NCBI GenBank assembly: GCA_965207545.1
Contig: CBDBMS010000003.1
Location: forward strand, 285,411 to 349,410
Length of the DNA: 64,000 nt
Source: Gammaproteobacteria bacterium
Lineage (GTDB): Bacteria > Pseudomonadota > Gammaproteobacteria > Tethybacterales > CBDBMS01
Direction: 5' to 3'
In this document: positions 3,006-57,260 of the stretch, piece after piece
How the letters are laid out: each line of letters begins with the position of its first letter
Position numbering within the stretch: position 1 is the stretch's first letter
The notes under the pieces: generated by a model
Databases searched by the model: none
What the model saw: only the letters and a program-made list of their open reading frames with translations
What the model was told of the DNA's origin: nothing
Made by a program: the position numbers and the translations under genes

Positions 3006-3050
3006 CGGGAAACAGTGGATAGAATAGGGAAAGAGTGTTCGTGTTCAGCT

Positions 3051-5457: not shown

Positions 5458-5515
5458 CGGGCGCCATCCGTACTATAATCAGCCCCTTATTGCACCAGCA
5501 CAGAGAAGACTGACA

Positions 5516-6085: not shown

Positions 6086-6277
6086 CCTGTTTTCCGGCTT
6101 TTCCGGAATCCATGCCAAAGCCAAGCATGAATTGCCGCCTCATGACTTCCTCGGACATGACTGTTTTCGTTGATTCTGTCCACGTGGGGATCCCTGCAGG
6201 GCCTTGCATCCTGTTTCCCTGAGACAGCGGCTGTATGTTTTTTCCCGTACATTTTCCTTGACTTCCCGGGGGGTGTT

Positions 6278-6315
6278 GGCCACTGTAGGTGGCCGAACGC
6301 TGTTGACATTGTCAA
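6278..6315 (+). promoter_or_regulatory. two perfect palindromes in the efp-pstS intergenic region (candidate operator sites)
   Basis: GGCCACtgtagGTGGCC at 6278-6294 and TTGACAtTGTCAA at 6303-6315, about 165 nt upstream of the pstS ATG. No canonical Pho box (CTGTCAT-N4-CTGTCAT) recognised. Confidence 0.2.
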
Positions 6316-6479
6316 GATCCATGGCAGGAACTGACTTTCATGGCATCAAAGATGGAATTCATCCGAACGGATGAAGTCAGGCGCTATTTTCGCCCGGTTG
6401 TCCCCATGATTCCGTCATTCATCCAGCGCCTCCTGCATAGAATTTGACTACAATGATTCTCTTCTTCAGGAGTCTGAAA

Positions 6480-35996: not shown

Positions 35997-36123
35997 CGCC
36001 TGGTCTCGGCCGAAAGTACAGGCTGTCGCCGGATTCCGGTTGGCCGACATATATTTTTGGTTTACAATACAATATCTTGTCAAATTCCATGCAGGAAACT
36101 GAAGAACTTGGCATGGAATTTTA

Positions 36124-39100
36124 TTGTCTATGGTACATGATGAACAATCTGACAGCGTTCGCAAAATGAGCCGGTTGCCGCATCCGGCCAGACGGGCCTG
36201 TCGTTCAGAACGGGGCTTCATCCATATTCTGCTGGTGGTGCTGGTGACGTTCGGCATCACCGTCTATGGGTTTCTTCCGTCACTTGAAGAGGCGCTCATC
36301 AGCAAGACCCGCCTGGAACATGAAAGATATTCCGATCTGTTCCGGGCCCGCGACGCTCTGCAGAAGTATGCCCTCTTGGGTCCGGACGACAGAGGGAGCG
36401 ACAGATCTGAAATGCCCGGGGTGGGAGTGCGGCGCTTTCTGCTTCCCTGTCCCGATCTTCCTGCCAGCGGCGAGGTGTTCTCCGATGGCATTAGCGAGAA
36501 CTCATGCTTGGGACCGGCCGGCAGCATTGATGTCAAGCGTGACATTGATCTTGACCTGAATGACGATCTGGACAGTATCCAGGCCACAAGCACCAAAGGG
36601 AACTTCATCGGTTTTCTGCCATCCCGGGTTGCCAATCCTCACGATGCCAACAGGCCGCCGCTGGGCATTCTGGGCGAGACCAACGAGACGAACAGCCGGA
36701 ACAAACTGATCTATCTTGTTTCGCCCAACCTGATCCGCCGCGACCGGCCACTTAACCCAACCAGCCTTGCCCGCCGTTCGGAGGACTGGCTTGAGCTGGA
36801 TAACGTCATTGACAGCACGTACTCGACCACGGATGGTCCCGTCCAACTGGAGAAGCAAAGCAACCGCATTGCGCTGATGATAATGGCGTCCGGAACCAAC
36901 ACTCCGGTGTGCAGTGCCGAATCGCCCAACTCAGCTGCCCAAAGAGTTGGCAGCTGGGTTGACCTGTTCTATGACTCTTCCGACCGTACAGCGGACTGCA
37001 CGTATCCGCCCTCCTACCGGCTGGACGGGAAGCAGCACAACCGCTCGCTCAGCCGTCTCTCCTACGTGAGCGCCGAACAGCTTATCACAGGAGGAAGTGC
37101 AGACTTTGAGGACATCGAGGTTAGCGGCAGGCCGGTGAATGACGTTGTTGCAGGGAACCTCAACGGAGTCGGGGTTGCAGATCTTCTCAAGGGCTATTAC
37201 GCCCGCTACGGCCACTATCCGGATCCGGCCGCATTTGACATCGTCACCGGCGCCGGCTACCTTGCTCCACTGCCGCATATCAGCGACGAGCCCCATTCGG
37301 ATTCGCTCTATCGGCGGGGCGGCCTGTCCCTGGAGGGGATCAGCGCGATGCACCACATGAATGCCACAGTTGTCACAGTTGGCGCCCTTGTCAGCCCCCA
37401 AGCGAAACGGATCCGGGTCAATCTGCCGGAGGACATTGCCTTTGACAACGGATCGGGCGGGGCAGGCAGCATCCTTCAGGTTCCTCCGTTCAACACTTTT
37501 CAGCTCAATCCCGGCAGCCACCTGAAGCTTGCCTCAACAGACGGTTTCATACCGGTGAACCTAACGTTGCCGACCGAAACGGCTTTCCGGACCATGGCAA
37601 CGCTTGGTTTCAAGCCGCTTGATCTTACCGCGGCGAGCGGGTTGGTGACAACCAATGTACGGCTACAGATGGGGAGCACCGTCACAATGGGCAATGATGT
37701 GGCAGCCGGCCGCGCCTACCGCAGCCACCATGAAACCTTTCTTCCTCCCGGCATGCAGGTGTTGACGGAATCGCAGTTTCTGACGCTCTTCGTCCCGAAC
37801 ACCCATTTGAATTTTGGCGGTGGTGTGACCATCACCCAAACCTCAATAGTCAATTTCCCCACAGATGAGGTCGTGGCGGTGGAGGGGATTGACGTGCGCG
37901 TTCCAAACAGTGCGGTTGTCGAGGAGTTACTTGCGGTGCAGTCGACCGGCGGGATCATGGTGGGTGCGGCCGGGCAGGGTGGCGTAGCGAGGAGCTTCGA
38001 GATCGAAGGGGACGTCATTGCGCTTGGCGTGATTCCCCATGCGGCCAGCCCTGATGTCACCATAGACGGGACCACCTACGTCAACTCCACTACAGAGGCG
38101 GATCTGCCTCTTCTGGCTCCGCTAAGGGTCTCCAACAAGGGCTTTCTGCCGGTCGACCACATTCCCGATCTAAACGTCGTGTGTGCCAGCGTCAACGTTG
38201 CGGTGGTGTCGCTGGTTTCTCCCGGCGGCGGCTGTGGATCTCCCTACCTGCCCAATGCGAATGTCGTGCTGGCGCCGGTCGAATCCGGCGCACTGAGGCT
38301 GTTGCTTCCGTCCGACATGGAATTCCTGTCGTTCCCGAGCGAAGAGGGCCACGGGGTGATGGTCGAATCCTTCCCGATCCTCAATGCCGCCGCGCGTGAT
38401 GCCGCCTTTGTTCCCAACGAGGCGCCGAGTGCCTTCCGTATGCCGGAAGCCGACTACCAGGTTCTGGACGGTTCCGGCGTATCCTCGTTTCCCTCCGCAC
38501 TGCTAGCCGGAATTGGCGTGAACACGGCGCTGGAGAGGAAGCCAGTTCCGATCAGTCTTCCGGCCGGTTCACAGCTGGTGATGCCTCTTTCCAGTTCCAC
38601 GTCACTGACACTTGGAAAGGGTTTTGATCTGCCTTTCGCCTATGCGGTTGTTCCTGCGGGCACCCGGCTTCCCGGCGTGCTTCCGCCGGGGTCGATCAGG
38701 CCTGATGGCCGTAAGGTTCCGTCAGTGCCGGCAAGCGATTTGGTGGAGGATGACATTCTTTTGCCGCGCGGCGGCATTGTCCACTTCAACAACCACCTGC
38801 CGGACGGGAACCGCCTGGTGCTGGCCTCCACATCCCTGCCGAACTACAGCGATCTGTCCATCAGAGGTGAGATGCGGAACTTGGCGTTTGAGGTTGTGGA
38901 GTCCATGGCGGTGCTCTATTCAGCCGGTTCAGGAGTGCCCACGCGGCTCACCTTGGAGAGCGGCTGCTTCGTGATGCCCTACCGCACCGCCTGGTACTGT
39001 GAGGAGGAGGTCTACAGAATACAGGATTCGGGTGATTTCCTGGAGACGGTCGGCAATTCACTGGTGGAGGTGGGCATCCAGAAGACCGATTTCCACCATG

Positions 39101-42100
39101 TCATGGAAGGGAACACGGATTACCGCTGGAGCTACAGGAGTGGAAATGCACTGGGTTTCGTCACCGCCGACAGTGTTGGAACCGCTCCGCCCGCCGGCGC
39201 GCCGATTCCTTCCCTCTATCTTGACGAGTCCACACGCATCCTCGCACCTGTCGGCGCCACGGTTCGAATTGCCGTAGATGCCGCCGGCGGCGAGCCGGGT
39301 CTTGCGATCAGCACCACTCTCGCGCCGATGCTTCTGAACCGGTATGCCGAGCAGTTGCGCGGCGATTCTCTTTACGTGATGGATTTGGACGCTGCCGACA
39401 GGTTCAGCCTGCCGGCAACGCCGCGGTCCGGCGGCAATCGGATCGACACGATACCGCTGAGGAACCAGCTCATCACCGTATCCCAGGCATTAGATTTTGA
39501 ACGCACCCGACTCATCTTCAACAGCGCCAATGTTTATTCCAGCCCGATTGAAACGACCGCGGACATACTTCTCACTCCTGGCGTTGATTCGATCCAGCCA
39601 GTAATAACGCTCAACTACAGCTTGACACCCTATTCTGACATGCTGCTGACCGGCACGGTCTCCGGTGCGGCGGTCAGCGTGACGGTACCGGCCGGCTCGA
39701 TTGTTGAGGTTGAATCGACACCGAGCGATTTTACGGTGTTGTCGCCAGAGGTGGTTCTGACCCGGACCGAGATCAGGCGCATCGCTCCGCATTTCGGCGG
39801 AGTGAATCTCGATCCTGCGATCATGCTGATCACGGTGTCGGCGGCTGTCTTGCGACAAACTGCGGAGCCTTTCCAAGTGGTGCGGATCAAGCCGGCACGG
39901 GGCGGAGGCTCGGTCAGCCGTGGCCGTTCGAAACTGTATACCCACTACGAGATCATGGGGGTCTTGCGCGAACAGGTGACGGTTCTTTTCGACAGCCCGT
40001 TTGAGCTTGATGCCTACACGTTTGAGCAGGGCGGTGACGCAGTGCGAAGGCTTGTAGTCAACGGCACCTTGGGCATGGATTCACGCATTTATCCGGAGGT
40101 TGCCATACACTTCTGGACCATCGACTTTGGGGTGAGCGACAATATCAATAACCAGCTAGTAGCCCCTCCTAACGTGGAGACCGCAACGCTCTACAGAGAT
40201 ACGTTCTCGGGTGACCAATATCCGGCGATTCCCAAGTACGCCGCCGGAACCGATCCGGGCAACCAGTTTGTGATGCCGGCTGGAACACGGGTTCTGCTGC
40301 CGGGTGCGAGTGCCTACGACTTTGGAACCGGCGAAATCAGTTCGGACCGGATTGTGTTCCTGCCGTCCCCAGTGTATGCAAATCCGGAGCTTGTAAGCAC
40401 AGTGACCATGTACGAGTTCCGCTCGCACCGTCTCGGCAACAATTTCAGTTCGGAGGTTGTGCTGTCGACAGCAACGGGCGAGACGAGCATTGATCTCGCC
40501 CCGCCACTGAGAACCACGCTCAGCGGTCTTGACCTGTTCACACCATCCGGAGGTGCGCTGTTGCGCGAGATTGACGGAGGGGCGATCGATTCCGAATTGG
40601 CAGGGGTGATGGTGACGACGCTGATTGAGGACCTGCCGGCGGGCTCCTGGCTCGACATTGCCGGCGGCAAGGTGCAGTGGCGCGGCACGGATCCGAGCTT
40701 GCCGGTGGAATCGATGCCTTCGGCGCTGGCGACCGTGCTTCGCGACACCCCGATGGTCTATGCCGTTGCGAACGAGTGCCGGCGCACCGCGTATCCGCAC
40801 CGCAGGGACTTCGGTCCCGAGTGCGCCTTGCGCGAGGGCGAAGGCCTCAAAATGAACGTTGCCGCAGGCTCTTGGCTGGATCTTCCGGAGGAGAAGGCGC
40901 TGGCGTCCCGTCGCATGGTGATTCGGGCCACGCCGGGTTCGCTCCTGTCGCCGACGATTTCCGTTTCGGTGCCGGCGTATGACCGGGACGCGATGAGGGA
41001 TGCCACAAGCACCGTCTATAACGACGTTCTTTGGGCGGAGGTGGACATGGGGGCGGCAGAACTCGTGCTGGTCACACTTGAATCGATGGTGCCGACAGGA
41101 ACTACGCTCTCATTCGCTTCATCCGGAACATTCCCGCATCTGCTTGATGCAGTGTTCCACGCTCCGGAACAGGGACTGGAGGTGGTTTACCTGAACGACG
41201 GCCAGAGCCTGTTTTCGGCGCTTTCGATGGCAGTCGACGACGGATACGGCAGTTTGGATTTCGTCAAGGCGCAGGTGACAACGAACCTGACTCTCTATCC
41301 GGGGGGGCAGTTCCAACTGTCGGACGGTTCCCTGTCGCGGGGCCACCGGCTGGTCGAGGTGCCTGCGGACGCGGCAATCACGATGGGTCCGGCAGTTCTG
41401 GTCACCAACGGAGGTCCCAACGCGGAAGGCCTGCTTAGCAACGGGGGCTGGCGTGGCGACATGACGCTTCAGGGTTTCCGTCCGCATCCGGGGAGTTCGT
41501 ACAACCTGACTGTTGACATGATGGGCAATCCTGCCTATGGCTACGACTATGACGGGTTGCCGGTCGTTGAGCGTGCGCCGCTGATCACCAGTACAAGCCA
41601 AGGCAGCCAGTTCCTGGACACCACGGGCAGCTACATGATGAAACCCGGATATGCCTGGAACGGTCTTATCGCCTCAGCGGCAACGATTTCCCTGCAAGAC
41701 ATGACACAGAGCAACTTCCGCACCGAAACGGCCTACCAAAACCGTGGCGGAGTGTTTGTCCGGCGCTATCCCGACTTGGACAGCTTTGCCAGAATGGGTT
41801 CGCACAATGTGATCCAGCTGGATGGCACGACGCGCACAGCCACGCTGCCTCTCCCGACTGTTGCAGTCACCGTATTCGCATCGGGCACCCGGGCGGGCCT
41901 GGAGTTCGATCTGTACGAGGCCGATCCGATCTTGGTGACATTTCACCTGTCCCATCTTTCCGCCGTAACCCTGGACGCCTCAACGCCGTTGCTGATGGAC
42001 GAGCATGGCACGGAGGATTTTCCGGTTGCGCGGAGAATCTACAATCCGAGCAGGCTGGTAGAGCCCTTTGTTGAAGAGGTTGTGTACGAGATTGATCCGG

Positions 42101-45100
42101 ATCTTCTGGCCGTTTATTCCGACAGTGCGTCAGCCCTGGTGACATTCGCGGGTCTCGACTACCAGGACGAGCTGGAGGTGAACTTCCATCCGAGAAGGCG
42201 TTCACGTGCCAGCGGGGTGGGGATGCACGTTTCGCATATGGCGCCCAACTTCTCCAGCCAATCCAACTCAATCGACCTGCTTGCGATGAACGACCTGTCC
42301 ACTATCAGCATTGACGAGGACGTTGCGGATCTGGCTGTGGAGGCAGCCGATTTCCTCCATGCGTACCGCGGTTCGGTGGTTGTCCACGAGCAGACTGCAG
42401 CAGGCTTGAACAGCACGGTGACCGTGTCGCCATTCCAACGTCCCCGCAACACCTACCAGGTGACGATCGGCACCGGCCAGCGGGCTGACGACGGCGCCAT
42501 TGCAAGCGGCGGCGGGCTGTTCGGCCTGCCGGTGCCAAGCGACTATGCAGTTACGGTTTCAGTGTCGCTTCGCGCAGATGTTCCCCAGGCGACGGCTCTT
42601 CCTGCATCGGTTTTTCACGAGGAACACTTCACCACGATACCTGCCAACCTGGAAATAGGCCGCAACGCGTTTTTCTCACTGAACAGAAGGCACGGGATCC
42701 AGACGACGCTGAAGTTCGGCTCCGACTTCACAATAGACGGCTATGCGTCGATCTGGCCGCAGAGTTCGCAGGGCGTTCAGAGCGGCTGGGGCTTTTCCGG
42801 CTTTACGGGGGACGGTTCGTATCAACTTTACTTCGAGAGGATGGCCGCGGAATTTGTGGATGGACCGCCTCCGGAAATCTGGCTCATGTTCCCCGAGCCG
42901 TATGCGAGTCTTCCATCGGCCGACGGCTCCATGATTGACGTCTATGCCGGAAGCATGATCAATCCCGTAACCGGTGAGATCATCCAGGCGCGGCCGTTTC
43001 CGGCAAGGGCTACGCTCACCCTGGGAGGCGGCGGAGCATCCGGCGCCATAGGCGGAACGGATGCAGACACGCCACGTCCGGTTTTGGCCACCCCGTTGGA
43101 TCCGCGGGTTCATCTCTACAACAGCTATAGCCTGCCGGTTGCCGCCGGACAGGCGCAATTTGACCCATTGCTTGTCCGGACGGCAGACGAATGGCAGGAC
43201 ACCATGGGCACAGCGGTGACACCGACCGGAGTCACCTTTTCCGGCGCCGCGGTGGATCCGCTCAGCACGCGTCACATACCACTGTGCTTTGACGACCAGA
43301 GCCGTCTGGCCGAGACGGCCGTACTCGGATGCCAGTCAGTGTTCACCGATGTGGACATGAATCTGCCCAACATGTCTACGCGAATCATTGCCGACCTGGG
43401 AGGGGCAGCCACTAGCACCATTGCCTGGGACGTTTCGAAATCGGAAACTTGGCTGGTGGAGAACGCCGCACATCCGTCCGCTTCGCTTGTGCACCGGGAT
43501 GTACATACCTTGGACGAGCTGTTGCTGAAGACCAGAAACAGAACAAACAGGTCACTTCGAAACGTCACGGAGATCCGGATTCCGGGCAATGAGGAACTCG
43601 TTGTCAACGCCTTCACACAGGCGCCAGAAGGGATTTCCGATTTCCGGTTTCCGTCCGGTTCCTGGGCGCGGGTAGGCGTTCCGGAGGGAACAGGACCGCT
43701 CACCAACCTGTCAGTGGGGATTGGCAACTGGGCATTCCCGAGCAGGGTGAGGCCGATACGCGGCACAATTAACCTTGATGTGGAATACGACGTTGCAATT
43801 GACCCGATAACACTGGACTGCGGGGGTTGCACGGTGACGGAGACAGACGTAACAGTGCCTATTAACGGCGTCGACACAACGATGCCGTCCCTGAGCGTCA
43901 CTGCGCCGCTGTCGCCAACGGAAACCTATGAGGCGAGCTATCCCTATCTGCACTTTACGGGCGCAAACGCGCCTCATCCCACGCTTGGACTGGCCTATCA
44001 GACTCCGATGGCCATAGGCACCCCCATGGTGTCCGGAGGCACATTGGTCGCGGCAACAACGTTGTCGCTGACAACATGGGCGGCATCCATTGCATTCGCA
44101 CCGGTCACCGGAGGAACGGGCGAGCTTCCGCTGAGGGTGTCGAACACTGACGACCGCGACAGGTTCCAGATCGACATGAAGCAGAACTTGTGGATAACTC
44201 TGCAGGACGATGTGGATGTGACCTATACATACCGTGGCGTGGTCACCACCCTGTTTCTTCCCGAAGGCACAATTGTGAATCCGATTGTGGGCACTTACCT
44301 GATTCCGCCCGGCGTGGGAGGTCGGCATGAGCGTCTGGAAAGCAGATCAAGCGCGCTTCTGGTGCCGAAAGGGCATCTGTCACTGACGCGGCCGGGACTG
44401 ATTCTTCCGAAAGGGGCGAGATTCCATGCGGCTCAAGGCGCACAGCTTGAAAACGTTCAGGCGGCGGTGTTTCACAGTCCGTATCCGCTGGAGAACGCCA
44501 AGGGTTGCGCAGTGGCTTCCGCGGCGCCTTTCGACCAGGTCCACGAAGGCGTGGTCCAGGGAGGCGCCACCCGGACAAGCGATCCGGTCTCAAGCGGTCA
44601 CATCTGCACGTATCTTGACACGCCGGAGAACACCGACTTCGACAATGTCTTCGACTACTACAGCGGGTCGCAGCGTTCACGTGGCAGAGTGGACCAGCCG
44701 ATTGACACCAATGACAGGGTCTACGCCCTGGGCGGACGTCTTGTCGGCGCGTTCCTGACCACCGTGTCCGCATCCATAGCGCCGCAGGCGATCACGCCGG
44801 GGCTGACGATCATCACTCCGGCAATTTCAGTGGCTGTGACAACGGCCATCCCGGTCACGACGCTGACACCGGCGGTGGTTCCGTTTGACGGCCCGACACC
44901 TCCGCCACTGGTGCCGCCGGTGCCGCCGGTGGGAGATAAGGAGTTTCTGCCTACCGGCGGAACAATTGTGACACACGACCCTCACCCCGCCGACGGTACG
45001 GAGTCCCAATTCAGTGTCCGCCCCGGGGTCATAATATTCAACAACATACACTTTACTGTTCCTCCCGGATCAGATGGTTATTTGCCGATATCGTTGGTCA

Positions 45101-45405
45101 TCGGTGGCACCTCCAGGTTGGTATCAGGAGTCGACTATAGGATAACCTTTAGGGATTTGCCTGCTACTGACTGTCCGGATTTTGACAGCGCGACTGCTCC
45201 GAAGACCTGTTACTTTTTCGTGCCAGACGACGTAAGTTTTTCCAGAACACTCTCCGACGGAAGAATATTTCACACCATCCAATTAGCTGTATCTTTTAGT
45301 GTACCGACGGTTGATCCAGTCGACCAAGACGTGGAGGTCTCGATAGTACTGTTCCCTGGCACTTCCCAGGAGGTCCGTTATACACTACCATTCAGCTTCA
45401 TATGA
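36124..45405 (+). CDS. giant (3093 aa) prepilin-like surface protein with an atypical Glu5-less N-terminus; first gene of the giant-pilin-like operon
   Basis: Single uninterrupted 9.3-kb ORF. Probable real start at the ATG at 36166 (MSRLPHPARRACRSERG|FIHILLVVLVTFGITVYG): a basic leader, Gly-1, Phe+1 and a ~20-residue hydrophobic helix, but no Glu+5. Shares the post-helix LPCPD motif module with the three downstream paralogues. No other recognisable domains. The 3' ~400 nt are AT-richer. Confidence 0.6.
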   Translation: MSMVHDEQSDSVRKMSRLPHPARRACRSERGFIHILLVVLVTFGITVYGFLPSLEEALISKTRLEHERYSDLFRARDALQKYALLGPDDRGSDRSEMPGVGVRRFLLPCPDLPASGEVFSDGISENSCLGPAGSIDVKRDIDLDLNDDLDSIQATSTKGNFIGFLPSRVANPHDANRPPLGILGETNETNSRNKLIYLVSPNLIRRDRPLNPTSLARRSEDWLELDNVIDSTYSTTDGPVQLEKQSNRIALMIMASGTNTPVCSAESPNSAAQRVGSWVDLFYDSSDRTADCTYPPSYRLDGKQHNRSLSRLSYVSAEQLITGGSADFEDIEVSGRPVNDVVAGNLNGVGVADLLKGYYARYGHYPDPAAFDIVTGAGYLAPLPHISDEPHSDSLYRRGGLSLEGISAMHHMNATVVTVGALVSPQAKRIRVNLPEDIAFDNGSGGAGSILQVPPFNTFQLNPGSHLKLASTDGFIPVNLTLPTETAFRTMATLGFKPLDLTAASGLVTTNVRLQMGSTVTMGNDVAAGRAYRSHHETFLPPGMQVLTESQFLTLFVPNTHLNFGGGVTITQTSIVNFPTDEVVAVEGIDVRVPNSAVVEELLAVQSTGGIMVGAAGQGGVARSFEIEGDVIALGVIPHAASPDVTIDGTTYVNSTTEADLPLLAPLRVSNKGFLPVDHIPDLNVVCASVNVAVVSLVSPGGGCGSPYLPNANVVLAPVESGALRLLLPSDMEFLSFPSEEGHGVMVESFPILNAAARDAAFVPNEAPSAFRMPEADYQVLDGSGVSSFPSALLAGIGVNTALERKPVPISLPAGSQLVMPLSSSTSLTLGKGFDLPFAYAVVPAGTRLPGVLPPGSIRPDGRKVPSVPASDLVEDDILLPRGGIVHFNNHLPDGNRLVLASTSLPNYSDLSIRGEMRNLAFEVVESMAVLYSAGSGVPTRLTLESGCFVMPYRTAWYCEEEVYRIQDSGDFLETVGNSLVEVGIQKTDFHHVMEGNTDYRWSYRSGNALGFVTADSVGTAPPAGAPIPSLYLDESTRILAPVGATVRIAVDAAGGEPGLAISTTLAPMLLNRYAEQLRGDSLYVMDLDAADRFSLPATPRSGGNRIDTIPLRNQLITVSQALDFERTRLIFNSANVYSSPIETTADILLTPGVDSIQPVITLNYSLTPYSDMLLTGTVSGAAVSVTVPAGSIVEVESTPSDFTVLSPEVVLTRTEIRRIAPHFGGVNLDPAIMLITVSAAVLRQTAEPFQVVRIKPARGGGSVSRGRSKLYTHYEIMGVLREQVTVLFDSPFELDAYTFEQGGDAVRRLVVNGTLGMDSRIYPEVAIHFWTIDFGVSDNINNQLVAPPNVETATLYRDTFSGDQYPAIPKYAAGTDPGNQFVMPAGTRVLLPGASAYDFGTGEISSDRIVFLPSPVYANPELVSTVTMYEFRSHRLGNNFSSEVVLSTATGETSIDLAPPLRTTLSGLDLFTPSGGALLREIDGGAIDSELAGVMVTTLIEDLPAGSWLDIAGGKVQWRGTDPSLPVESMPSALATVLRDTPMVYAVANECRRTAYPHRRDFGPECALREGEGLKMNVAAGSWLDLPEEKALASRRMVIRATPGSLLSPTISVSVPAYDRDAMRDATSTVYNDVLWAEVDMGAAELVLVTLESMVPTGTTLSFASSGTFPHLLDAVFHAPEQGLEVVYLNDGQSLFSALSMAVDDGYGSLDFVKAQVTTNLTLYPGGQFQLSDGSLSRGHRLVEVPADAAITMGPAVLVTNGGPNAEGLLSNGGWRGDMTLQGFRPHPGSSYNLTVDMMGNPAYGYDYDGLPVVERAPLITSTSQGSQFLDTTGSYMMKPGYAWNGLIASAATISLQDMTQSNFRTETAYQNRGGVFVRRYPDLDSFARMGSHNVIQLDGTTRTATLPLPTVAVTVFASGTRAGLEFDLYEADPILVTFHLSHLSAVTLDASTPLLMDEHGTEDFPVARRIYNPSRLVEPFVEEVVYEIDPDLLAVYSDSASALVTFAGLDYQDELEVNFHPRRRSRASGVGMHVSHMAPNFSSQSNSIDLLAMNDLSTISIDEDVADLAVEAADFLHAYRGSVVVHEQTAAGLNSTVTVSPFQRPRNTYQVTIGTGQRADDGAIASGGGLFGLPVPSDYAVTVSVSLRADVPQATALPASVFHEEHFTTIPANLEIGRNAFFSLNRRHGIQTTLKFGSDFTIDGYASIWPQSSQGVQSGWGFSGFTGDGSYQLYFERMAAEFVDGPPPEIWLMFPEPYASLPSADGSMIDVYAGSMINPVTGEIIQARPFPARATLTLGGGGASGAIGGTDADTPRPVLATPLDPRVHLYNSYSLPVAAGQAQFDPLLVRTADEWQDTMGTAVTPTGVTFSGAAVDPLSTRHIPLCFDDQSRLAETAVLGCQSVFTDVDMNLPNMSTRIIADLGGAATSTIAWDVSKSETWLVENAAHPSASLVHRDVHTLDELLLKTRNRTNRSLRNVTEIRIPGNEELVVNAFTQAPEGISDFRFPSGSWARVGVPEGTGPLTNLSVGIGNWAFPSRVRPIRGTINLDVEYDVAIDPITLDCGGCTVTETDVTVPINGVDTTMPSLSVTAPLSPTETYEASYPYLHFTGANAPHPTLGLAYQTPMAIGTPMVSGGTLVAATTLSLTTWAASIAFAPVTGGTGELPLRVSNTDDRDRFQIDMKQNLWITLQDDVDVTYTYRGVVTTLFLPEGTIVNPIVGTYLIPPGVGGRHERLESRSSALLVPKGHLSLTRPGLILPKGARFHAAQGAQLENVQAAVFHSPYPLENAKGCAVASAAPFDQVHEGVVQGGATRTSDPVSSGHICTYLDTPENTDFDNVFDYYSGSQRSRGRVDQPIDTNDRVYALGGRLVGAFLTTVSASIAPQAITPGLTIITPAISVAVTTAIPVTTLTPAVVPFDGPTPPPLVPPVPPVGDKEFLPTGGTIVTHDPHPADGTESQFSVRPGVIIFNNIHFTVPPGSDGYLPISLVIGGTSRLVSGVDYRITFRDLPATDCPDFDSATAPKTCYFFVPDDVSFSRTLSDGRIFHTIQLAVSFSVPTVDPVDQDVEVSIVLFPGTSQEVRYTLPFSFI

Positions 45406-46982
45406 GTAAGGCTGGCCAGGGAACGTCCATGAACCGGAGCGGGAGCCTCCGTGCCGTTGCGCGGCCGCGTGGCGTCCGAGGCTACTCGATTGTGGAGCTG
45501 ACGATTGTGCTGGTGGCGGGTGCGCTTCTGGCGAGCGGACCCATTCTTCTGATCCAAAACAAGGTTCTTCAGGACAACTATGATTCGGTGGCGCGCCAAT
45601 TGGAAGTGATCAGGTTCAACGTGGCTGACTATGCGGCATCACACCGGACGGTTGAGCGCCACGTCGAGGTGGCCGGCACCGTTCATGCACTGCCGGGAGG
45701 GCGCCCCTATCTGCCGTGTCCGGACGTGACGGGTGACGGCATTGAGGATCGCATGGGCCTGACCATTCCACAGACAGTCACGGTTGCGCCCGGCGCTGCC
45801 ATAGGAAGCGCCGAAGGGCAATGCGTGAGCAGCCTGGGCTGGCTTCCGCATGCGACCCTGGGCAGCCAGCCGGCCGATCCCTGGGGGAACCGCCTTGTCT
45901 ACCGTGTGGACATGGTGATGTCCAATGCGTTGGTTGGCTTCGGTCCCGGACAGCGTGCCGGCTCCTACGATCTGGCGGGCTTGGTGAGAAGCAATGCCTC
46001 GGGCCCCCCCTCGTATCCGCTTCTTTCGGCTCGGGGAGGGACCGCCTTGTATCTGCCTCCGGTAATCTGCGTTGGCGGCTATCCCGCCACCGACAACGAC
46101 CATTCCTGTCCCAATGGCGACTACAAGGGCAGTGTTGTTCCGGCGGGGGCTTCAATAGGTCTAACGCTGGCATCATGGTCGGACATCAGCGGACTGCCGG
46201 AAGTGTACAGCACGGTTGATTCGGGTTCCTATTCGATGTCAGTTCACGACGGTCTTGCATTTGTCATCCTCTCCCCCGGACGGCACTATAGGCCTCCCTT
46301 ATATCAACAAGCCGAGGTTGGAACGGCGGTAGCCGGTGTGTGTACGAGATCAACGAGCGCCCAGGGAGCGGCTGGGATTGAGAACTCAGACACCTACAAC
46401 TATAATCAGCTTCATGGCAGCCTGTGCGGCACGCGTTCGACCGCATCCCCTCTGTTCTACCTGCCCCTGCGGCCTAATGCGTATGCCGCGTATGAATCGG
46501 AGAGTGACGGATCGAGCGCTAGCGACGACCAGGCTGCCTGGATGTCGACAGGGGAGCTGATGGGTCTGCTTGACGACCTGGCAGTCTTTCCCGTCAGCGC
46601 ATTTCCGGTGATTCCGGGATCAGCGTCAGTTCTGACAGGGCAGGGCGTTTCGGTCTCGGCGTCGCCGGCGACTGTCACGTTGCAGCCTGGCGTTGCATCA
46701 GCCGTGACACTTAATGCCAGTGCGGCGGCCACCTTGGCGCTGGATCTCCCGGGCAGTGATTCGGTCTACCACTTTCTCATGGATGTCGCAGGAACAACCG
46801 TCACGGTCTGTACGAGTCTGCTGACCTGTGAGTTGAACCTGTCCAGCGGCGACACCGAACTGAGCATTCTTTCCAGTGGCACAGTCACGGCAGAGATAAC
46901 CCTTTCTGGCGGCGGAAAGCTGGTGCTTGCCCGTCAGCCCCTGCCAACCAGCATAGCCGTTCCATGGGCGCCCTCGCCATGA
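45402..46982 (+). CDS. large (526 aa) type IV prepilin-like protein (class III signal peptide)
   Basis: ATGA overlap with the upstream gene. The N-terminus ...RGVRG|YSIVELTIVLVAGALLASG has Gly-1, Glu+5 and a hydrophobic alpha1 helix. GRPYLPCPDVTGDGIEDR and WGNRLVYRV motifs shared with the paralogues. Confidence 0.65.
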   Translation: MSKAGQGTSMNRSGSLRAVARPRGVRGYSIVELTIVLVAGALLASGPILLIQNKVLQDNYDSVARQLEVIRFNVADYAASHRTVERHVEVAGTVHALPGGRPYLPCPDVTGDGIEDRMGLTIPQTVTVAPGAAIGSAEGQCVSSLGWLPHATLGSQPADPWGNRLVYRVDMVMSNALVGFGPGQRAGSYDLAGLVRSNASGPPSYPLLSARGGTALYLPPVICVGGYPATDNDHSCPNGDYKGSVVPAGASIGLTLASWSDISGLPEVYSTVDSGSYSMSVHDGLAFVILSPGRHYRPPLYQQAEVGTAVAGVCTRSTSAQGAAGIENSDTYNYNQLHGSLCGTRSTASPLFYLPLRPNAYAAYESESDGSSASDDQAAWMSTGELMGLLDDLAVFPVSAFPVIPGSASVLTGQGVSVSASPATVTLQPGVASAVTLNASAAATLALDLPGSDSVYHFLMDVAGTTVTVCTSLLTCELNLSSGDTELSILSSGTVTAEITLSGGGKLVLARQPLPTSIAVPWAPSP

Positions 46983-49900
46983 GAGATTGCGTCAGCAGAT
47001 TCAGCCGGTCTTTCCGAACCGGACGAAAAGGTGCGGACTGTCCCGGGTTCCGTACACGCGCGGGCGGCTTCACGATCGTGGAGATGGCGATCGTGCTTGT
47101 GGTGCTGGGCCTGCTTCTGAGTTCGGCCTTGACTCCTCTGCGGCACCGCTGGGAGAACGGGAAGTACGAAGATGAACGGGAGAGGATCGAGCAGCGTCGC
47201 CAGGCGTTGGTTGCGTATGCTACGCAGAACCGGACGGAAGAGCGTACCGTTGTGCTTGAAGACCTGGGCTGGAGCTACACGATCCCGGCGGGACGTCCCT
47301 ATCTGCCGTGTCCGGACATTGACGGCGATGGTCTTGAAGACCGGCTGGCGACGAGTGGACTTCCTGATTCTGGGACTGCAATCACTCTTGAAAGCGCATC
47401 AAATTTCCGGGGGATTGCGGCGGCCGGGGGATGCCAGCACTACCAAGGACTGTTCCCGTGGGGTTCGGTTGGCACTGAAGCGAATGACACTTGGGGGCGT
47501 CTCTACATCTACCGTGTACATCCGTCGTTCAGCAACAATGTGTCGGGTTTCGATCACCTGACAAGAGCGGACGTCTACGACGAGACGTCAGGCCTGGTCG
47601 TCAGCACGGTGACGGTTAACTATGCCGGCAAGGATCTGGTTCCGACCTCGGCCATCTCCAACGACAGCATCAGGTTTCTCTACAACACCGAACTGAGCGA
47701 CCAGGCCACGGTGACAGTGACAACCTATCAGAGTCTCTACGAATCGACAGCGACAACCACGACAGCGACGATTAACGGCGTAACGGCAGTGCTGGTTCAT
47801 GACGAGCGTCCATTTGGCGTCTGTGCGCCGGGGGTGAGGGCGGCGGCCGGAGCGACAGTTACAATGAGTGCGCACTGTCCCGATGCCGATGCGGTGGCCG
47901 GCGTGGCGCTTACGATGAGCACTGCGAGCAACGTGGTCGAGTTCGACCCTCCACGCACAGGGATCAGCGGGCCGCTCCTCGTTCGCGCCTACATGGGGAG
48001 CGACAACGGAGCGGATGCCGACGACATCCCCAGGAGTTTCAAGGAGGGGGTCGTGTTCGGAGTGGTGTCGACCGGACAGAACGGCTACGGCGGCTTTGTC
48101 CGGAATGCAGCCGGAGGCCTGGCGTGTGGCAGTCATCCTGTTCCCGACGAGCCGTCGCCGGAGGTGATGCATTTGAGTCTGCTAAAAAACGTGAGCGGTC
48201 ACTGCAGCACATTGCCTACCAGCTACGCCCCCCATTATGAAGGAAACCTGTACTATCTGCCGCGCACCGAGCCGACAACTTTCGAAGCGGACTCGGAAAC
48301 AAGCTCACCTGTTGGCTTTGATGACGTGATTGGCTGGATGGGGCCAGATGAGTTCGTCGGAAAGCTGGCTCGGCAGGATGTGTTTCCAGTTGAAATGTAT
48401 CCGTACATAGGACTTCCGCTCGATTCGACAACCGTTGCAATGTCGGTGGCGCCGGCACTGGGGGTTGACTACACCGGAGCTCCGGGTTCCTCTGTGACGA
48501 TTGACCCTGCGCGTGATGCATCGGGGAGTGCCCGCTTTGTGGGCAGGACGGATCCGCCGCTGCCGCTGTCGGATGGCACGACGATTTCCCTGACGGTACA
48601 GGTGGACCAGGAAGACGGAAACACGACCCAGGTTCCATTCCGGTTCGACACCGAGGATGTGACCCTGACGCTGGAAGCAACCGGCGCCCCGTGCGTGGAC
48701 GACATGGACACCCCCTTGCCTGAGATAACGGGTGGTGACAGCTGTCTGATCTCGGTAACAGGCCGCGTGCCGGCGGATATTCTGCTGAGCGTGACCGGGG
48801 TGACGGTGGATGACTTTGTCAATGCAGCGGCAACCATCCAGATGGTGCCCTTTATCGGCACAAGCCCGACGGTGTCGCTAGCTCATCCTTCCGTCGCGAT
48901 CCTGACGCCGAACAGCGCGGCCGGCAGCATTGTGTTTGCCCCCTCGGACGTGTTCTACACACCGGCGGTTGCGCCAGGTTTGGAGATGCTGGCGACATTG
49001 CAGGCTCTGTACATACCTGAGGCCGACGGAGTGCCGCAGACGCTGACACTGGAGGCGGCGTCCATTCCGGCAGGCGTGACACTGACGCTGGGAGGAGTGC
49101 CGTCATGCATCTCCGTCGGCGTGAACATGTGCGAGTATCGGTTCGGCGGCATGACGACAGAATTTGATGCGACACTTTCTGCCCAGGATCTAACCACGGC
49201 CGCGTCCTTCTCGGTTACAGTGGCTGGCGGGGGTGCGGTTCTGACGATCCGCACCCGCACAGCGCCATTCGTCGATGAATTCAGGGTTCTTGGCGGATCG
49301 GCGGCGACAACCTATTTTCGCACAGGAGCCCCCGTGCTGAAGCGTTTTGCACTCAAGGGGGGCGGTCTTCAGCCTCTGGAGCGGCTTACGGTGACGGTCT
49401 CGATCAGCAGCAACAGGATGACTTCGTCGGAGAAGTTCATCAATACGGACATCAGTGTCGCAACGCCGGAGGCGGAGTGCTACGACAATGTGATGGTGCC
49501 GCCTGTACAGGCAACGATGGTTGGACACGGCGACCACTGCGTATTCGAACTGACTGGAAGCAACGAGGCGCGGTTTCTTCTGCGGCTGAACGAACTGCGG
49601 CCTGAGCTGATCACCCTGACGACCACGCCAACGGGCTTGGAGCTGGCCCTTCGGGAAACGACGTCCACTGCGCCCGGAGTGTATTTCGATCCGAGGGTGC
49701 TTCCGTACATCACCGCGACGCCCACGCCTGGAGCAACAAGGCTGGCCGGAGCCACACTTCATGTGTCCACAGGAACCGGAGCCGCCCCGTCAAGTGACTT
49801 TGTGTTCACGCTGACCTCGGCACCGCCGAGTCCGATCGTGCTGGCTGCCGCATTTGCCGCCGGTGTGACGCCGTCAACCTGCAGTTTTTCCGGTGGGACG

Positions 49901-52900
49901 ACACTGTGCGCGCTGACTGTGGCGTCGACTTCGTTACCGAGCGGAACCTATGAGACGGATGTTACGGTTGATCTGACAAGCGTTCAGGAGTTGGTGTCAG
50001 CGGGTACGCCAACGCTTACGATTCTCTGGGAAGCCCATCCGGTGCTTCTGACGCGTCCTATTCCCAACACCAACCCCTATCTCTCTTTCCTGCCGGACAC
50101 AGCATCGTTTCCCGCGGCTGTGAATCCGGAGAACCGACCCTTCGGTCTTGTGACCATGGACTATGGAAACTTGGCAGGCAACCGGGACATTACGCTAAGT
50201 GCAACCGGTTTGCCGGCGCTGGCGGCGCTGACGCTAGAGGAGGGAGTACTGACGCCTTTGACTTGCCGGATCACTGCCGGGACGCCTTGCACTGTCAGTG
50301 TCGCGAACGATCTTGGCGCTGTCGTGTTTATGGGCTCGATCGAGAACGCCCATGTGCTTTCCGCCGGAGACACAGTGACAGTTCAATGGAACGGCAATGA
50401 CGTTCTGGAAGTGGAGGCTCTCCCGGCTCAGCCGCTCAATGTTGTGGGAAGTCCCGCCACGGTTCGCTATGCGCCAACACCGCCTGGCCGCGGAATTCTG
50501 CAGGCGTTCGAGAGAGTGACCGTCGATTACTCCCCTGTCGACCCTGCGCTGACGTCCATCACGTTGGCAATCACCGCAAGCGGTTTGCAGACCGGCAACT
50601 CGCTTTCCGGCGATCCGATGCTCCCGGGTCAGAATGTCCAGTTCACCCCGGCAGCCAGTGTGCAGCCTGTCACATTGACGACCACCACTCCCGGCGATTT
50701 TACGTTCAGCCTAAACCTGACGCTTGCACCGAACCGTTTGGAGACAGGTTCGACAATGGCGCTGTCGGCGGAAGGCCTCCCGTTTCTCTCGATTCAACCG
50801 GCGACGCTAGGTTTCATGCCGGCGTCAGTAGGCTACGTCAACGCACCTGGAGGAATGAGGTCTCTTTTCGATGTCAACCTGATCTACAGCGGCAACGTCA
50901 GCGCAGCCGTGGCCAATGTGTTCCTGGAGCATGAGGGCTTTGATTTTCCTCAGGCTTCAGACCGGTTCCTGCTCTCGCTGAACACGACTCCTCCGGAGAC
51001 GTGCGACCTGCACAGGAATGCACCTGCGACATGTGACTGGACTTTCCCGCTGACAGGCGGCATGGCCAACATTCCAGTCGACGTCAGCCAATTCAGCGAC
51101 ATTGGGGGCGGTACCGCGTATCTGAAGTACCGCGGGGTAACCGTGCTTACCTTTATGCCTGCCATGCCAACGCTCAGTATTTCCCCAAACATGGCAACAT
51201 TTGATTCACTATTGGATGGTGCTCAACCAGCCATAGCAAGATTTTCCTATAGCCAGGGCCATCCAGGCGCGTTAGCTACGGACGTCACATTGACAGTAAG
51301 CGGGATAAGAGCCGGGAATTCTCATGTTCTACAGGCTACCGGCATCAACTGTTTTTTGGGCGCTGACGGTGAATGCGCATTCAGTTTTACGACTGGGTCC
51401 GACGGGACATACAATCTTGATCCCTTCGCCGTGACGCAATTTGATCGTGACTCTCAAGGTCCCCACCCGATTACAGTCAGCTGGAACGGCCAGGAGATTT
51501 TTGTGTGGACACCCATCCCGCCGTCGATCTCTGCCAATCCCGACAGATTTCAATTTAGGGCGGGTACGTCAGGGAACAACAGCGATCGTGTTAGCCCTCC
51601 TGTCACAGTCACGTATTCTTCACGCGATGTTAACTTATCAGAGGCCGTTCTCACCGTCACTGCATCCGGCCTTGCGAGCGGAGCCACCATCGCGATGGAC
51701 TTGGACATCATGCCGGCACAGTCATGCAGTTTCACTCGCGTTGCGGCCGAATGTGTTGTCACCTTGGAGAGTCCGTCGTCGACTGGGGAGTTCGAGCAGG
51801 AGTTGAGGACCACACTGGAGAACCCTGTTGCCCAGGGAGACGCCAATATGACGCTCTCAACGATAGACACCGACTTCTACATATTGGCACCCGCCTCTGT
51901 GACGCTCGGCTTTGCCCCCAACAGTGGACTGTTTGATCAACTGGGTATTGGGAGGCGCGACCACAGACCGGCATTTTCCTATAGCCAGGGTCTTCCAGGT
52001 GCGTCAAATACGACCGTCACATTGACAGTGAGCGGGCTGATGGGCACAGGTAATGGCTTAAATATGGACGTTGGTACCAATAGTTGCTCCCTGGGCCAGC
52101 TGATTGGCACTTTTGAGTGTGAACTCACTTTCACAACTCAAGCTGACGGGACGTTCAGTGCGAGCAGCCTGCTTAGGCTTCTCAGAGTTCAAGATCAAGA
52201 TGGCAACCCGGTCACAATCAGCTGGGACGGCCAGGAGGTTTTCGTGTTCGAACCGACACCGCCGTCGATCTCTGCCAGTCCCGACAGCTCTGCGTTTACG
52301 CCGACAGCCACTCCTCAGGTTTTCCGTTCCGTGCTCTCTTACGCTTCGCGTGACACCGGCTTGTCAAGAGCCACGATTACTGTCACTGCATCCGGCTTGC
52401 AGACTAACGTCACGGTTAGGTCGCGCTTCGACACCTCTCCAAGGCGAACATGCGACTTCACCACTGTTGCATCCCAATGCGTTCTCACATTGAGCGGACC
52501 GGATAGCTCCGGAACCTTCGATCATGAGATGACGGTCACATTGAGAAATCCTGATGACCAAGGCCAGTCCAATGTGACGCTCTCATGGGAAGACAATGAC
52601 TTCTACACCCTTTCGGTTCCAATGTCGTTGCTTAGCTTTACTCCCCGCGGGTTGTTGTTCCCCTTCAACGTAGAAGCTGTCAGAATTGCTGGTTTCTACA
52701 ACCAGAGACCTCCTGCATTTAGCTACTACACATCCAGTGGTGCAGGAACTTATGATGTCACGCTGGCCGAAAGCGGATTACAAACCGGCAACCAAATTTT
52801 CTTAAATTTGGACAGGTTCGGCGTTGATGAGTGCTCTCTAGTCGAAGATGGTACCTGCTCGTTCGCCGTTACCGTTGGTGCCAACAATTTTGCTAGCTTC

Positions 52901-53809
52901 GACTCAATAAGCTTTAGGACAGCCAGCTTTGCCGATCAGACCAATACGGTCACTATAAGTTGGGACAGCACTCCCGTCTTGATAGTTACACCGCCATCGC
53001 CAGGTTCAAATGCCGACTTCGGTTTTGATGCGACTGCTGCGTCTTTCAGGCAGGGCGCCAATCTTCTCGATGTGGCTGACAGGATCATCACGGTTGGCTT
53101 TGATTACGATTATGACAACCCAGCCCAGCCAGGCGGCTTTATGGGTCGAATACCCGCTCCCTTACTCACACTCACTGTCACCGGTTTGCAGACTCAAGTG
53201 AGCTTGGACACCAGCATACGCGGCAGCCAGTGCTCGTGGACTACCAACGGCTTGGGATGTGTTTATAACATGAGTGACTCGGGAACTGAGGGCATGTTCA
53301 GCGACACGTTGCTTATGACCTTGAAAATGGCGGGGAGACAGGGGACAAGTGCGATCACGCTTCAATGGACTCATCCCGTCTCGGGAACGAGCGCCGACGT
53401 GCTTACACTGACTCCGGCTGCACCGGCGGAGAGCTTGCGGTTCGATCCGATGACGGTTACATACACGCCTTCCTCTGGAACAACACCGGCATCTCTAGGT
53501 GATGTGACCCTCAACTACAACTCCGCCTCCGATTCGGCGGTCAGACAGTTTGTCACAATCACCTGGAACGCCTCTAATATGTCTTCGATTGACGAGATCG
53601 AGTTTCGTAACAGGTACATAGGCGTTAACCAGACGGCAACGCTCAGTCCCACGGAGACGACCGCTACGGTCGGTGTTGAAGGCAACTACGGCATTCTCTC
53701 ATCTGCCGTTACCATTTACGCAACGGATCCAAGTTCCCTTGGATCCGAGACGGTTGAAATCGACTGGGAGGGCGATACCGTTCTTGAGATTGAGGCGGCA
53801 ACACCATGA
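46964..53809 (+). CDS. giant (2281 aa) type IV prepilin-like protein with a long repeat-containing C-terminal extension
   Basis: Likely start ATG at 46979 (ATGA overlap with the upstream stop). ...RTRAGG|FTIVEMAIVLVVLGLLLSS has Gly-1, Phe+1 and Glu+5. GRPYLPCPDIDGDGLEDR and WGRLYIYRV motifs. The C-terminal third contains ~245-aa degenerate internal repeats and is AT-richer. Confidence 0.65.
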   Translation: MGALAMRDCVSRFSRSFRTGRKGADCPGFRTRAGGFTIVEMAIVLVVLGLLLSSALTPLRHRWENGKYEDERERIEQRRQALVAYATQNRTEERTVVLEDLGWSYTIPAGRPYLPCPDIDGDGLEDRLATSGLPDSGTAITLESASNFRGIAAAGGCQHYQGLFPWGSVGTEANDTWGRLYIYRVHPSFSNNVSGFDHLTRADVYDETSGLVVSTVTVNYAGKDLVPTSAISNDSIRFLYNTELSDQATVTVTTYQSLYESTATTTTATINGVTAVLVHDERPFGVCAPGVRAAAGATVTMSAHCPDADAVAGVALTMSTASNVVEFDPPRTGISGPLLVRAYMGSDNGADADDIPRSFKEGVVFGVVSTGQNGYGGFVRNAAGGLACGSHPVPDEPSPEVMHLSLLKNVSGHCSTLPTSYAPHYEGNLYYLPRTEPTTFEADSETSSPVGFDDVIGWMGPDEFVGKLARQDVFPVEMYPYIGLPLDSTTVAMSVAPALGVDYTGAPGSSVTIDPARDASGSARFVGRTDPPLPLSDGTTISLTVQVDQEDGNTTQVPFRFDTEDVTLTLEATGAPCVDDMDTPLPEITGGDSCLISVTGRVPADILLSVTGVTVDDFVNAAATIQMVPFIGTSPTVSLAHPSVAILTPNSAAGSIVFAPSDVFYTPAVAPGLEMLATLQALYIPEADGVPQTLTLEAASIPAGVTLTLGGVPSCISVGVNMCEYRFGGMTTEFDATLSAQDLTTAASFSVTVAGGGAVLTIRTRTAPFVDEFRVLGGSAATTYFRTGAPVLKRFALKGGGLQPLERLTVTVSISSNRMTSSEKFINTDISVATPEAECYDNVMVPPVQATMVGHGDHCVFELTGSNEARFLLRLNELRPELITLTTTPTGLELALRETTSTAPGVYFDPRVLPYITATPTPGATRLAGATLHVSTGTGAAPSSDFVFTLTSAPPSPIVLAAAFAAGVTPSTCSFSGGTTLCALTVASTSLPSGTYETDVTVDLTSVQELVSAGTPTLTILWEAHPVLLTRPIPNTNPYLSFLPDTASFPAAVNPENRPFGLVTMDYGNLAGNRDITLSATGLPALAALTLEEGVLTPLTCRITAGTPCTVSVANDLGAVVFMGSIENAHVLSAGDTVTVQWNGNDVLEVEALPAQPLNVVGSPATVRYAPTPPGRGILQAFERVTVDYSPVDPALTSITLAITASGLQTGNSLSGDPMLPGQNVQFTPAASVQPVTLTTTTPGDFTFSLNLTLAPNRLETGSTMALSAEGLPFLSIQPATLGFMPASVGYVNAPGGMRSLFDVNLIYSGNVSAAVANVFLEHEGFDFPQASDRFLLSLNTTPPETCDLHRNAPATCDWTFPLTGGMANIPVDVSQFSDIGGGTAYLKYRGVTVLTFMPAMPTLSISPNMATFDSLLDGAQPAIARFSYSQGHPGALATDVTLTVSGIRAGNSHVLQATGINCFLGADGECAFSFTTGSDGTYNLDPFAVTQFDRDSQGPHPITVSWNGQEIFVWTPIPPSISANPDRFQFRAGTSGNNSDRVSPPVTVTYSSRDVNLSEAVLTVTASGLASGATIAMDLDIMPAQSCSFTRVAAECVVTLESPSSTGEFEQELRTTLENPVAQGDANMTLSTIDTDFYILAPASVTLGFAPNSGLFDQLGIGRRDHRPAFSYSQGLPGASNTTVTLTVSGLMGTGNGLNMDVGTNSCSLGQLIGTFECELTFTTQADGTFSASSLLRLLRVQDQDGNPVTISWDGQEVFVFEPTPPSISASPDSSAFTPTATPQVFRSVLSYASRDTGLSRATITVTASGLQTNVTVRSRFDTSPRRTCDFTTVASQCVLTLSGPDSSGTFDHEMTVTLRNPDDQGQSNVTLSWEDNDFYTLSVPMSLLSFTPRGLLFPFNVEAVRIAGFYNQRPPAFSYYTSSGAGTYDVTLAESGLQTGNQIFLNLDRFGVDECSLVEDGTCSFAVTVGANNFASFDSISFRTASFADQTNTVTISWDSTPVLIVTPPSPGSNADFGFDATAASFRQGANLLDVADRIITVGFDYDYDNPAQPGGFMGRIPAPLLTLTVTGLQTQVSLDTSIRGSQCSWTTNGLGCVYNMSDSGTEGMFSDTLLMTLKMAGRQGTSAITLQWTHPVSGTSADVLTLTPAAPAESLRFDPMTVTYTPSSGTTPASLGDVTLNYNSASDSAVRQFVTITWNASNMSSIDEIEFRNRYIGVNQTATLSPTETTATVGVEGNYGILSSAVTIYATDPSSLGSETVEIDWEGDTVLEIEAATP

Positions 53810-57005: not shown

Positions 57006-57260
57006 TTATTTTTGGTCTGACCGCTCAAAGACAAGTTGGAGGGCATCCAGCAGCAGCATAGTCAGTATTAGGGGTTGCCCTATTTATGCGTTGTATGTCT
57101 CACTGGTTAATTGTGTTGTCAAGGCATCCAGTAATTCCAGTGAGATTGTTGAACCACAATGTTACTCCATGCAATTACTGCAAAAAAGAATTGGCATTAC
57201 TCACAAATTTGTGTGGAGCATTGATCCTTGCAAAAAGTGAATTTCCAATTTCATTAAACC

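Follow-up and report, generated by a model that had tools for sequence, protein, structure and literature searches.

Gene A (36166-45405, + strand), the first of a run of prepilin-like genes in the 64,000-nucleotide stretch of gammaproteobacterial DNA analysed here (hereafter the window), encodes a protein of 3,079 residues that is probably a giant minor pilin, modular and of the cap (K) type, placed at the tip of a type IV filament. By analogy with known tip complexes, we put the probability of this reading at roughly 0.6. The protein lacks the glutamate at position +5 of the predicted mature N-terminus (Glu5), and it is encoded together with three prepilin-like proteins, B, C and D, that carry this residue. 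The reading is favoured because the architecture, with its Glu5-less head, extensive middle part, invariant C-terminal element and trio of Glu5 partners, matches a known design. An I/J/K-like division of labour with A as the cap over B, C and D had been proposed in the original prediction, made from the letters of the window, and it gained partial support from the shared N-terminal module, the fixed loss of Glu5, the recurrent layout of one Glu5-less and three Glu5 genes and the presence of small relatives in pilus-machinery clusters.

Translated from the ATG at 36166, A reads MSRLPHPARRACRSERG up to the predicted cleavage site and FIHILLVVLVTFGITVYGFLPSLEE beyond it (a longer N-terminal reading is MSRLPHPARRACRSERG followed by FIHILLVVLVTFGITVYG). 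This places Gly at -1, Phe at +1, His at +3 and Leu at +5, followed by about 20 hydrophobic residues, in agreement with the original prediction. The length of 3093 aa given there is that of the mechanical open reading frame (ORF) opened at TTG 36124, and 3,079 aa are obtained from the ATG that the prediction itself had used. An in-frame ATG at 36130 is a possible alternative. The concern that the true start lies elsewhere is met by the position of the motif, which falls within the first 31 residues from any of the three starts, and by the leader of P0104, the closest homologue of A, which at 17 aa is equal to the A leader counted from 36166. Because the leader lengths match, ATG 36166 was chosen as the start; inspection by eye revealed no Shine-Dalgarno sequence before 36130 or 36166. 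The predicted class III (prepilin-type) leader MSRLPHPARRACRSERG occupies residues 1-17 (36166-36216, +) and ends in the invariant Gly -1. The predicted alpha-1 helix of mature A (residues 18-71; 36217-36378, +) opens FIHILLVV and has no acidic residue in its hydrophobic half. Thus A has the short basic leader ending in Gly -1 and the run of hydrophobic residues at the extreme N-terminus that characterise prepilins, and differs from B, C and D at +5, where it has Leu and they have Glu.

The missing glutamate is not peculiar to this protein. Relatives of A were reached through a short N-terminal profile and exhaustive search; a word-indexed search with full-length A gave no matches. Exhaustive HMMER searching with an A-type module profile built from two sequences yielded 61 A-type representatives, 43 of them at E <= 1e-10. 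Most are 2,600-5,582 aa long, and in intact N-termini the profile match opens within the first ~70 residues. Among 62 relatives from searches that spanned about 1.8-5.8 billion proteins, Gly occupied position -1 in 53/53 aligned N-termini, Arg position -2 in 40/53 and Phe or Tyr position +1 in 40/54, while position +3 was His in 36/57 and Gln in 5/57; the conservation of the motif is far above chance. Glu was found at +5 in none of 58. With Gly -1 in every member and Glu5 in none, the motif of A is confirmed and the absence of Glu5, predicted for A alone, is borne out as a fixed trait of the A-type family and no accident. The conserved glycines lie at Gly13/Gly18 in the Glu5-less family and at Gly14/Gly19 in the Glu5 family, and hhalign placed a one-residue gap at the Glu5 position when the two were aligned, so that deletion of the single residue Glu5 is as likely as a Glu-to-Leu substitution. 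The His or Gln at +3 (41/57 members; His20 in A, 36223-36225) lies inside the membrane-buried helix and has no counterpart in GspK/PilX-type or ordinary pilins; it might stand in for the polar contact lost with Glu5.

The translations of the three downstream paralogues retain Glu5, as had been claimed. Gene B (45402-46982, +; 526 aa), whose start and the stop of A share 4 nt, has Gly27 followed by YSIVE, a module named here after its LPCPD motif that reaches about residue 400, and an extension of ~125 residues. Gene C (46964-53809, +; 2,281 aa) has Gly35 followed by FTIVE, an LPCPD module that closes with FDDVIGWM near residue 485, and ~1,800 C-terminal residues of payload. Gene D (55242-56780, +; 512 aa), with Gly21 followed by YSLVE, consists of one complete LPCPD module ending FDDIIEW...GVLP. 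All three leaders are basic and end ...GVRG, ...RAGG and ...SQRG, respectively. B, C and D have in common an N-terminal module of at least ~200 aa (BLASTP 1e-20 to 1e-26) with the motifs RPYLPCPD..DGIEDR, LPW.TLG and D.WGN.L.YRV and the closing FDD(I/V)I.W, to which A aligned weakly but recognisably via LPCPD, DGI and NKLIYLV. The tails of A, B and C showed no resemblance to one another in BLASTP. When the four N-terminal modules were combined into a profile, 102 prepilin-type proteins (170-435 aa) were recovered, and 98 of these have Glu at +5. D passed the cut-off of model TIGR02532 (19.0 bits; cut-off 16.3) and C missed that of N_methyl (E 0.002). Two short members of the cluster of B, P0167 and P0168, were rejected as paralogues since they are truncated calls of the same gene.

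Two further features of the Glu5 modules were noted. Directly after the conserved Cys, B, C and D have a DxDxDG-like loop (45696-45755, 47288-47347 and 55563-55622, respectively) of the pattern ...LPCPD(x)(x)GDG(I/L)E(D/N)R, which reads PDIDGDGLEDR in C and looks like known calcium-binding loops. Another conserved Cys lies 20-40 residues after the first and suggests a disulphide.

The A-type module and the Glu5 prepilin family were matched by hhalign with a probability of 98.8% (E 1.2e-16) over residues 13-113 of A, and when a profile dominated by Glu5 proteins was run against Protein Data Bank (PDB) sequences, 21/21 matches were type IV pilins or pseudopilins. Judged from these alignments, a single prepilin-derived N-terminal module is common to A, B, C and D, and the A-type N-terminus appears to be homologous, by a transitive route, to bona fide pilins. 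When A(1-400) was modelled twice with AlphaFold2, each time from a different alignment, both models contained a helix at residues 16-71, with a per-residue confidence (pLDDT) mostly of 85-97, followed by strands; the means over the models were modest (pLDDT 63-64, predicted template modelling score 0.63). Foldseek found no match to the A model in the PDB, GspK scored only 2.6-2.7, which indicates no specific structural resemblance to it, and full-length A likewise had no PDB match.

The N-terminal pilin-like module of A (about residues 1-360; 36166-37245, +) contains LPCPD (93-97), Cys95/Cys114, DGIS, NKLIYLV (~179-185), RIALMIMASG (~234-243), SYVSAEQL (~299-306) and YGHYPDPAAF (~348-357). It is followed by a payload (about residues 361-2662; 37246-44151, +) that is non-repetitive, poor in Lys and rich in Thr, Ser, Val, Gly and Pro. 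No internal repeats were found in this region, and no known domain was matched in Pfam, NCBIfam or PDB sequences, either here or in the payload of C. Conserved islands are present at about 801-850, 1490-1607 and 2240-2338. Conservation along A peaks in the N-terminal module and is strongest in a C-terminal block (about residues 2663-2862; 44152-44751, +; ...GHICTYLDTPENTDFDN...TNDRVYALGGRL), the best conserved part of the family, where column identity is 33-35% (peak ~2,700-2,850) compared to 3-15% across much of the payload. The consensus of the block is GH.C..LD..EN.D.D ... ND(R)..(L)GG(K/R)L.L, given also as GHPC.WLDD.ENTDGD...NDRTYLLGG(K/R)L.L. In 25/25 full-length relatives aligned, the block ends at the stop or at most 13 residues before it, and it also closes payload-free relatives of 395-460 aa. 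One of these, P0156 (457 aa), keeps the N-terminal module and the C-terminal motif, from which it follows that the payload is an insertion between them. The possibility that the block is a duplicated pilin module was rejected because hhalign against either pilin module gave a probability of 0.5%. By analogy, the block suggests a closing element for the tip complex in the style of CpaL and GspK. The cap module as originally described was correct in its Glu5-less N-terminus and missed this block, which is possibly part of it.

The arrangement of one giant Glu5-less gene with three Glu5 genes is recurrent. It was found at L001/L006, L002/L003, L004, L013 and L014, on contigs of 0.5-2.0 Mb and always set among housekeeping genes; the context of two profile matches showed the same four-gene layout with first genes of 3,329 aa and 6,502 aa. 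The first gene of the relatives' cluster begins ...DARG/FVHVLLLVLF (the slash marks the cleavage position). Positional orthology holds for all three Glu5 genes in L001 and L002 and for the first of them in L004, with scores of 244-302 bits within a position and ~100-140 bits between positions. Scores that are higher within than between positions indicate three specialised Glu5 subunits, not copies of one. B, C and D of the window diverge more than these orthologues.

Small Glu5-less relatives were found next to filament machinery. In L010, L016 and L019 such a gene lies directly 3' of genes for a secretin, a tetratricopeptide repeat (TPR) protein, an ATPase (MshEN+T2SSE), T2SSF and three alignment-complex-like proteins, and 5' of a Glu5 LPCPD pilin. 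The same upstream genes are present in L015, L017 and L020, where the downstream Glu5 pilin was not found or the contig ends.

Several observations on these loci are recorded here. The orthologous first gene in L002/L003 (ends 8691/8661), two contigs of one sample, encodes 6,502-6,504 aa, about twice the length of A, and the giant in L014 is split into calls of 3,971 aa and 653 aa. The giant-gene relatives are metagenome-assembled genomes of uncultured Gammaproteobacteria with contigs of 0.5-2.0 Mb, several of them 1.8-2.0 Mb, which points to a small-genome lineage as the carrier; only three species representatives in GTDB carry the giant gene. The machinery-linked loci (L008, L010, L015-L017, L019, L020) contain an MSH-like cluster with, in this order, AAA_22, secretin (STN), TPR, MshEN-ATPase and platform genes, three genes of ~520 aa, ~200 aa and ~170 aa, and a Glu5-less LPCPD-family protein. 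L008 shows no Glu5-less gene; a Glu5 LPCPD pilin comes next there, as it does in L010, L016 and L019. Neither the three middle genes nor either pilin-like family has a name in Pfam or NCBIfam, and the cluster is apparently a recurrent, unnamed variant of the MSH-like type IV filament cluster.

Tip complexes of type IV filaments are capped by a Glu5-less subunit (PMC10191384; PMC7541494), of which GspK and PilX are known examples (PMC7541494). Like A, GspK (XcpX/PulK of type II secretion), PilX (P. aeruginosa, M. xanthus) and PilK (Neisseria) have a prepilin leader, Gly -1 and a hydrophobic residue in place of Glu5, are co-encoded with three Glu5 minor (pseudo)pilins and are larger than their partners through sequence grafted into or onto the pilin module. 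A has the non-acidic +5 residue and the three co-encoded Glu5 minor pilins of this group, although its partners are paralogues of one another and not recognisable members of the H/I/J families. GspK ends in an extra C-terminal strand and the A family in its conserved C-terminal block. A proposal of 2026 holds that a C-terminal strand licenses assembly of the tip complex, the donor being PilY1/PilC, MshQ or GspK/CpaL themselves (PMC13533445; PMC11870444). CpaL, of the Caulobacter Tad pilus, combines, as A does, a minor-pilin-like module lacking the docking residue with an extensive effector region in the middle and an element at the C-terminus, which in CpaL is proposed to return to the pilin sheet and so license tip-complex assembly (PMC11870444, PMC13533445). 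CpaL differs in its size (~626 aa), its recognisable vWA domain and its Tad (type IVc) system, whereas the payload of A has no recognisable domain and the relatives of A occur with an MshE-type machine.

The bulky grafts of modular pilins can be accommodated only at the tip (PMC8179133). The Streptococcus sanguinis proteins PilB and PilC resemble A in that a pilin module carries a bulky graft and is expected only at the tip (PMC8179133). The architecture of a pilin module plus an extra module is seen in both A and C, and C (2,281 aa, Glu5 present) fits the description of modular pilins directly (PMC8179133). That survey was based on InterPro signatures, and its extreme by number of extra domains was 860 residues; proteins of the A and C type have 2,300-6,500 aa and no known signature. 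PilY1/PilC and MshQ are likewise large tip-associated proteins (~1,000-1,200 aa) encoded beside minor pilins, and their conserved C-terminus docks on the K-type pilin. Unlike A, they are non-pilins with a Sec signal and no alpha-1 helix, and A matches neither PF05567 nor the MshQ models. In the A family, carrier and adhesin would be one chain. As far as can be judged from sequence, then, A resembles subunits of the GspK/PilX/CpaL type in its working, yet belongs to an unnamed family that is paralogous to its own partners.

The motif, its conservation, the prepilin homology, the conserved cluster and the association of relatives with machinery are observed; the scheme for cleavage, tip position, payload display and C-terminal fold-back that follows is proposed by analogy. 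A would be made with its 17-residue basic leader, and a prepilin peptidase encoded elsewhere would cut after Gly17 to expose the new N-terminus FIHILL... The hydrophobic half of the ~54-residue helix is predicted to anchor the protein in the inner membrane, with the pilin-like head of ~300 residues following it. By comparison with GspK, PilX and PilK, A would be the first and topmost subunit, a position to which it is suited because it has no Glu5 and because, at the top, no overlying subunit presents an N-terminal amine to be neutralised. Below A would come B, C and D, stacked as an initiation or tip complex, from which the type IV filament machine would extend the filament. The tip would present the payload of ~2,500 residues, most likely as a means of attachment, and the C-terminal block may, more speculatively, fold back onto the pilin module, much as the C-terminal strands of GspK and CpaL are proposed to close their tip complexes.

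A number of results weigh against placing A at the tip as a K-type cap. Neither A nor the 10 small relatives matched the GspK or PilX_N families (PF03934, PF14341) at E <= 0.1, and neither A nor the five larger relatives matched PilY1 (PF05567) or MshQ models, in Pfam and NCBIfam. The N-terminal methylation models (PF07963, TIGR02532) also failed to match A at E <= 0.1 in these databases. A profile of three Glu5-less N-termini recovered no pilin from PDB sequences, and it is for this reason that homology of A to pilins is transitive, via the Glu5 family. The 64-kb window contains no prepilin peptidase, ATPase, platform, secretin or major pilin, and in the reduced-genome relatives no filament machinery, peptidase or major pilin was found beside the giant gene. 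The C-terminal block, terminal in the relatives, is internal in A (~2,811-2,862) and is followed by a unique tail of 217 residues, a Thr/Pro/Val-rich linker and a domain of ~140 residues running to the stop (44752-45405, +), with zero alignment occupancy in 25 relatives. Moreover, a tip protein of 330-700 kDa would need to pass a secretin. The GspK/PilX-like identity first proposed for the cap stands as regards the missing Glu5 and the three Glu5 partners; the lack of GspK/PilX_N matches and of machinery in the window counts against it.

With machinery, peptidase and major pilin all missing from the neighbourhood of the cluster in the reduced genomes, two other readings were kept. A to D might form a short, pseudopilus-like stalk of minor pilins only, not a long filament and perhaps devoid of a dedicated major pilin, that would serve solely to export the giants A and C and anchor them on the surface of a cell with a reduced genome. 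The cluster is never beside major pilin or machinery genes in genomes of 1.6-2.0 Mb, two of the four window proteins (A and C) carry huge payloads, and the Glu5 modules are GspG-like around the WGN motif, with weak matches to GspG/GspH, all of which would suit such a stalk. We consider it unlikely, since distant relatives of both families occur in clusters with the MshE-type ATPase typical of true pili, and the L016 cluster has a separate 229-aa pilin that resembles a major subunit. Less probable still is that the N-terminus of A is an uncleaved, pilin-derived signal-anchor and A a giant periplasmic or envelope protein tethered to the inner membrane (bitopic), outside any filament. The want of Glu5, of methylation-model matches and of nearby machinery agrees with this, as does the great size of A, but a mere anchor needs no invariant Gly -1 with Arg -2 and Phe +1, nor does it account for co-conservation with three Glu5 pilins or for small relatives inside pilus-machinery operons. 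That the N-terminus is a cleaved Sec-type signal peptide, which the original prediction had named as a contrary outcome, or that Glu5 was lost by decay of a former pilin gene, is highly improbable. The basic n-region and hydrophobic stretch are superficially Sec-like; the hydrophobic run is ~20 residues long, however, there is no Ala-x-Ala site and a single predicted helix continues to residue 71. Against decay, Glu5 is missing from 58/58 aligned N-termini, mostly in intact ORFs of 2,600-6,500 aa.

In the window, A, B, C, a gene for L-serine dehydratase and D form a co-directional run with overlapping stops and starts. Two sigma-70-like promoter candidates (36040-36073, +; 0.2 expected), which are consensus matches only, lie 5' of all three candidate starts of A. 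The dehydratase gene, which is complete (53806-55248, +; SDH_beta and SDH_alpha, E 1e-54 and 1e-88) stands between C and D, overlaps its neighbours by 4 nt at the start and 7 nt at the stop, and is absent from the equivalent cluster in L001, L002, L013 and L014. A frame that stays open for more than 2,247 aa (57258-64000, +) runs past the end of the window and has a Sec-like N-terminus. It contains no fewer than 18.6 tandem repeats of 339 nt (113 aa) at 87% identity, with 74% G+C compared to ~60% elsewhere; the repeat units have acidic motifs of the DDEIDDGD type, and the product of the frame is probably a second giant surface protein beside the pilin-like cluster. The remainder of the window is housekeeping, including pstSCAB-phoU, ppsA, trkAH, nth, leuS, dapD, znuABC and a nitrilase gene.

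A bolder interpretation is possible, advanced here tentatively and with well under even confidence. These proteins may be the core of a tip complex in a single chain, in which the K-type cap pilin is fused to as many as ~6,000 payload residues and to a closing element like that of PilY1/CpaL, and would be the largest pilin-class proteins described. With the three dedicated Glu5 partners they may form a filament-tip or stalk-mounted attachment organ in uncultured Gammaproteobacteria with genomes of 1.6-2.0 Mb, and the smaller relatives would define a pair of minor pilins, not named before, in an MshE-type type IV filament system.

Should the cap reading be correct, the size of pilin-class subunits would rise from several hundred residues to 3,000-6,500, and how a tip protein of 330-700 kDa passes a secretin would become a concrete question. 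The rule that a Glu5-less subunit caps the filament would hold where cap and body subunits are recent paralogues, and for that reason the family would offer a clean natural experiment on the residues that decide position in the filament. The invariant C-terminal block is an independent, testable case for the licensing of tip-complex assembly by a C-terminal strand (PMC13533445). The family, which comprises at least 60 protein clusters and is nameless in the databases, would also gain a role.

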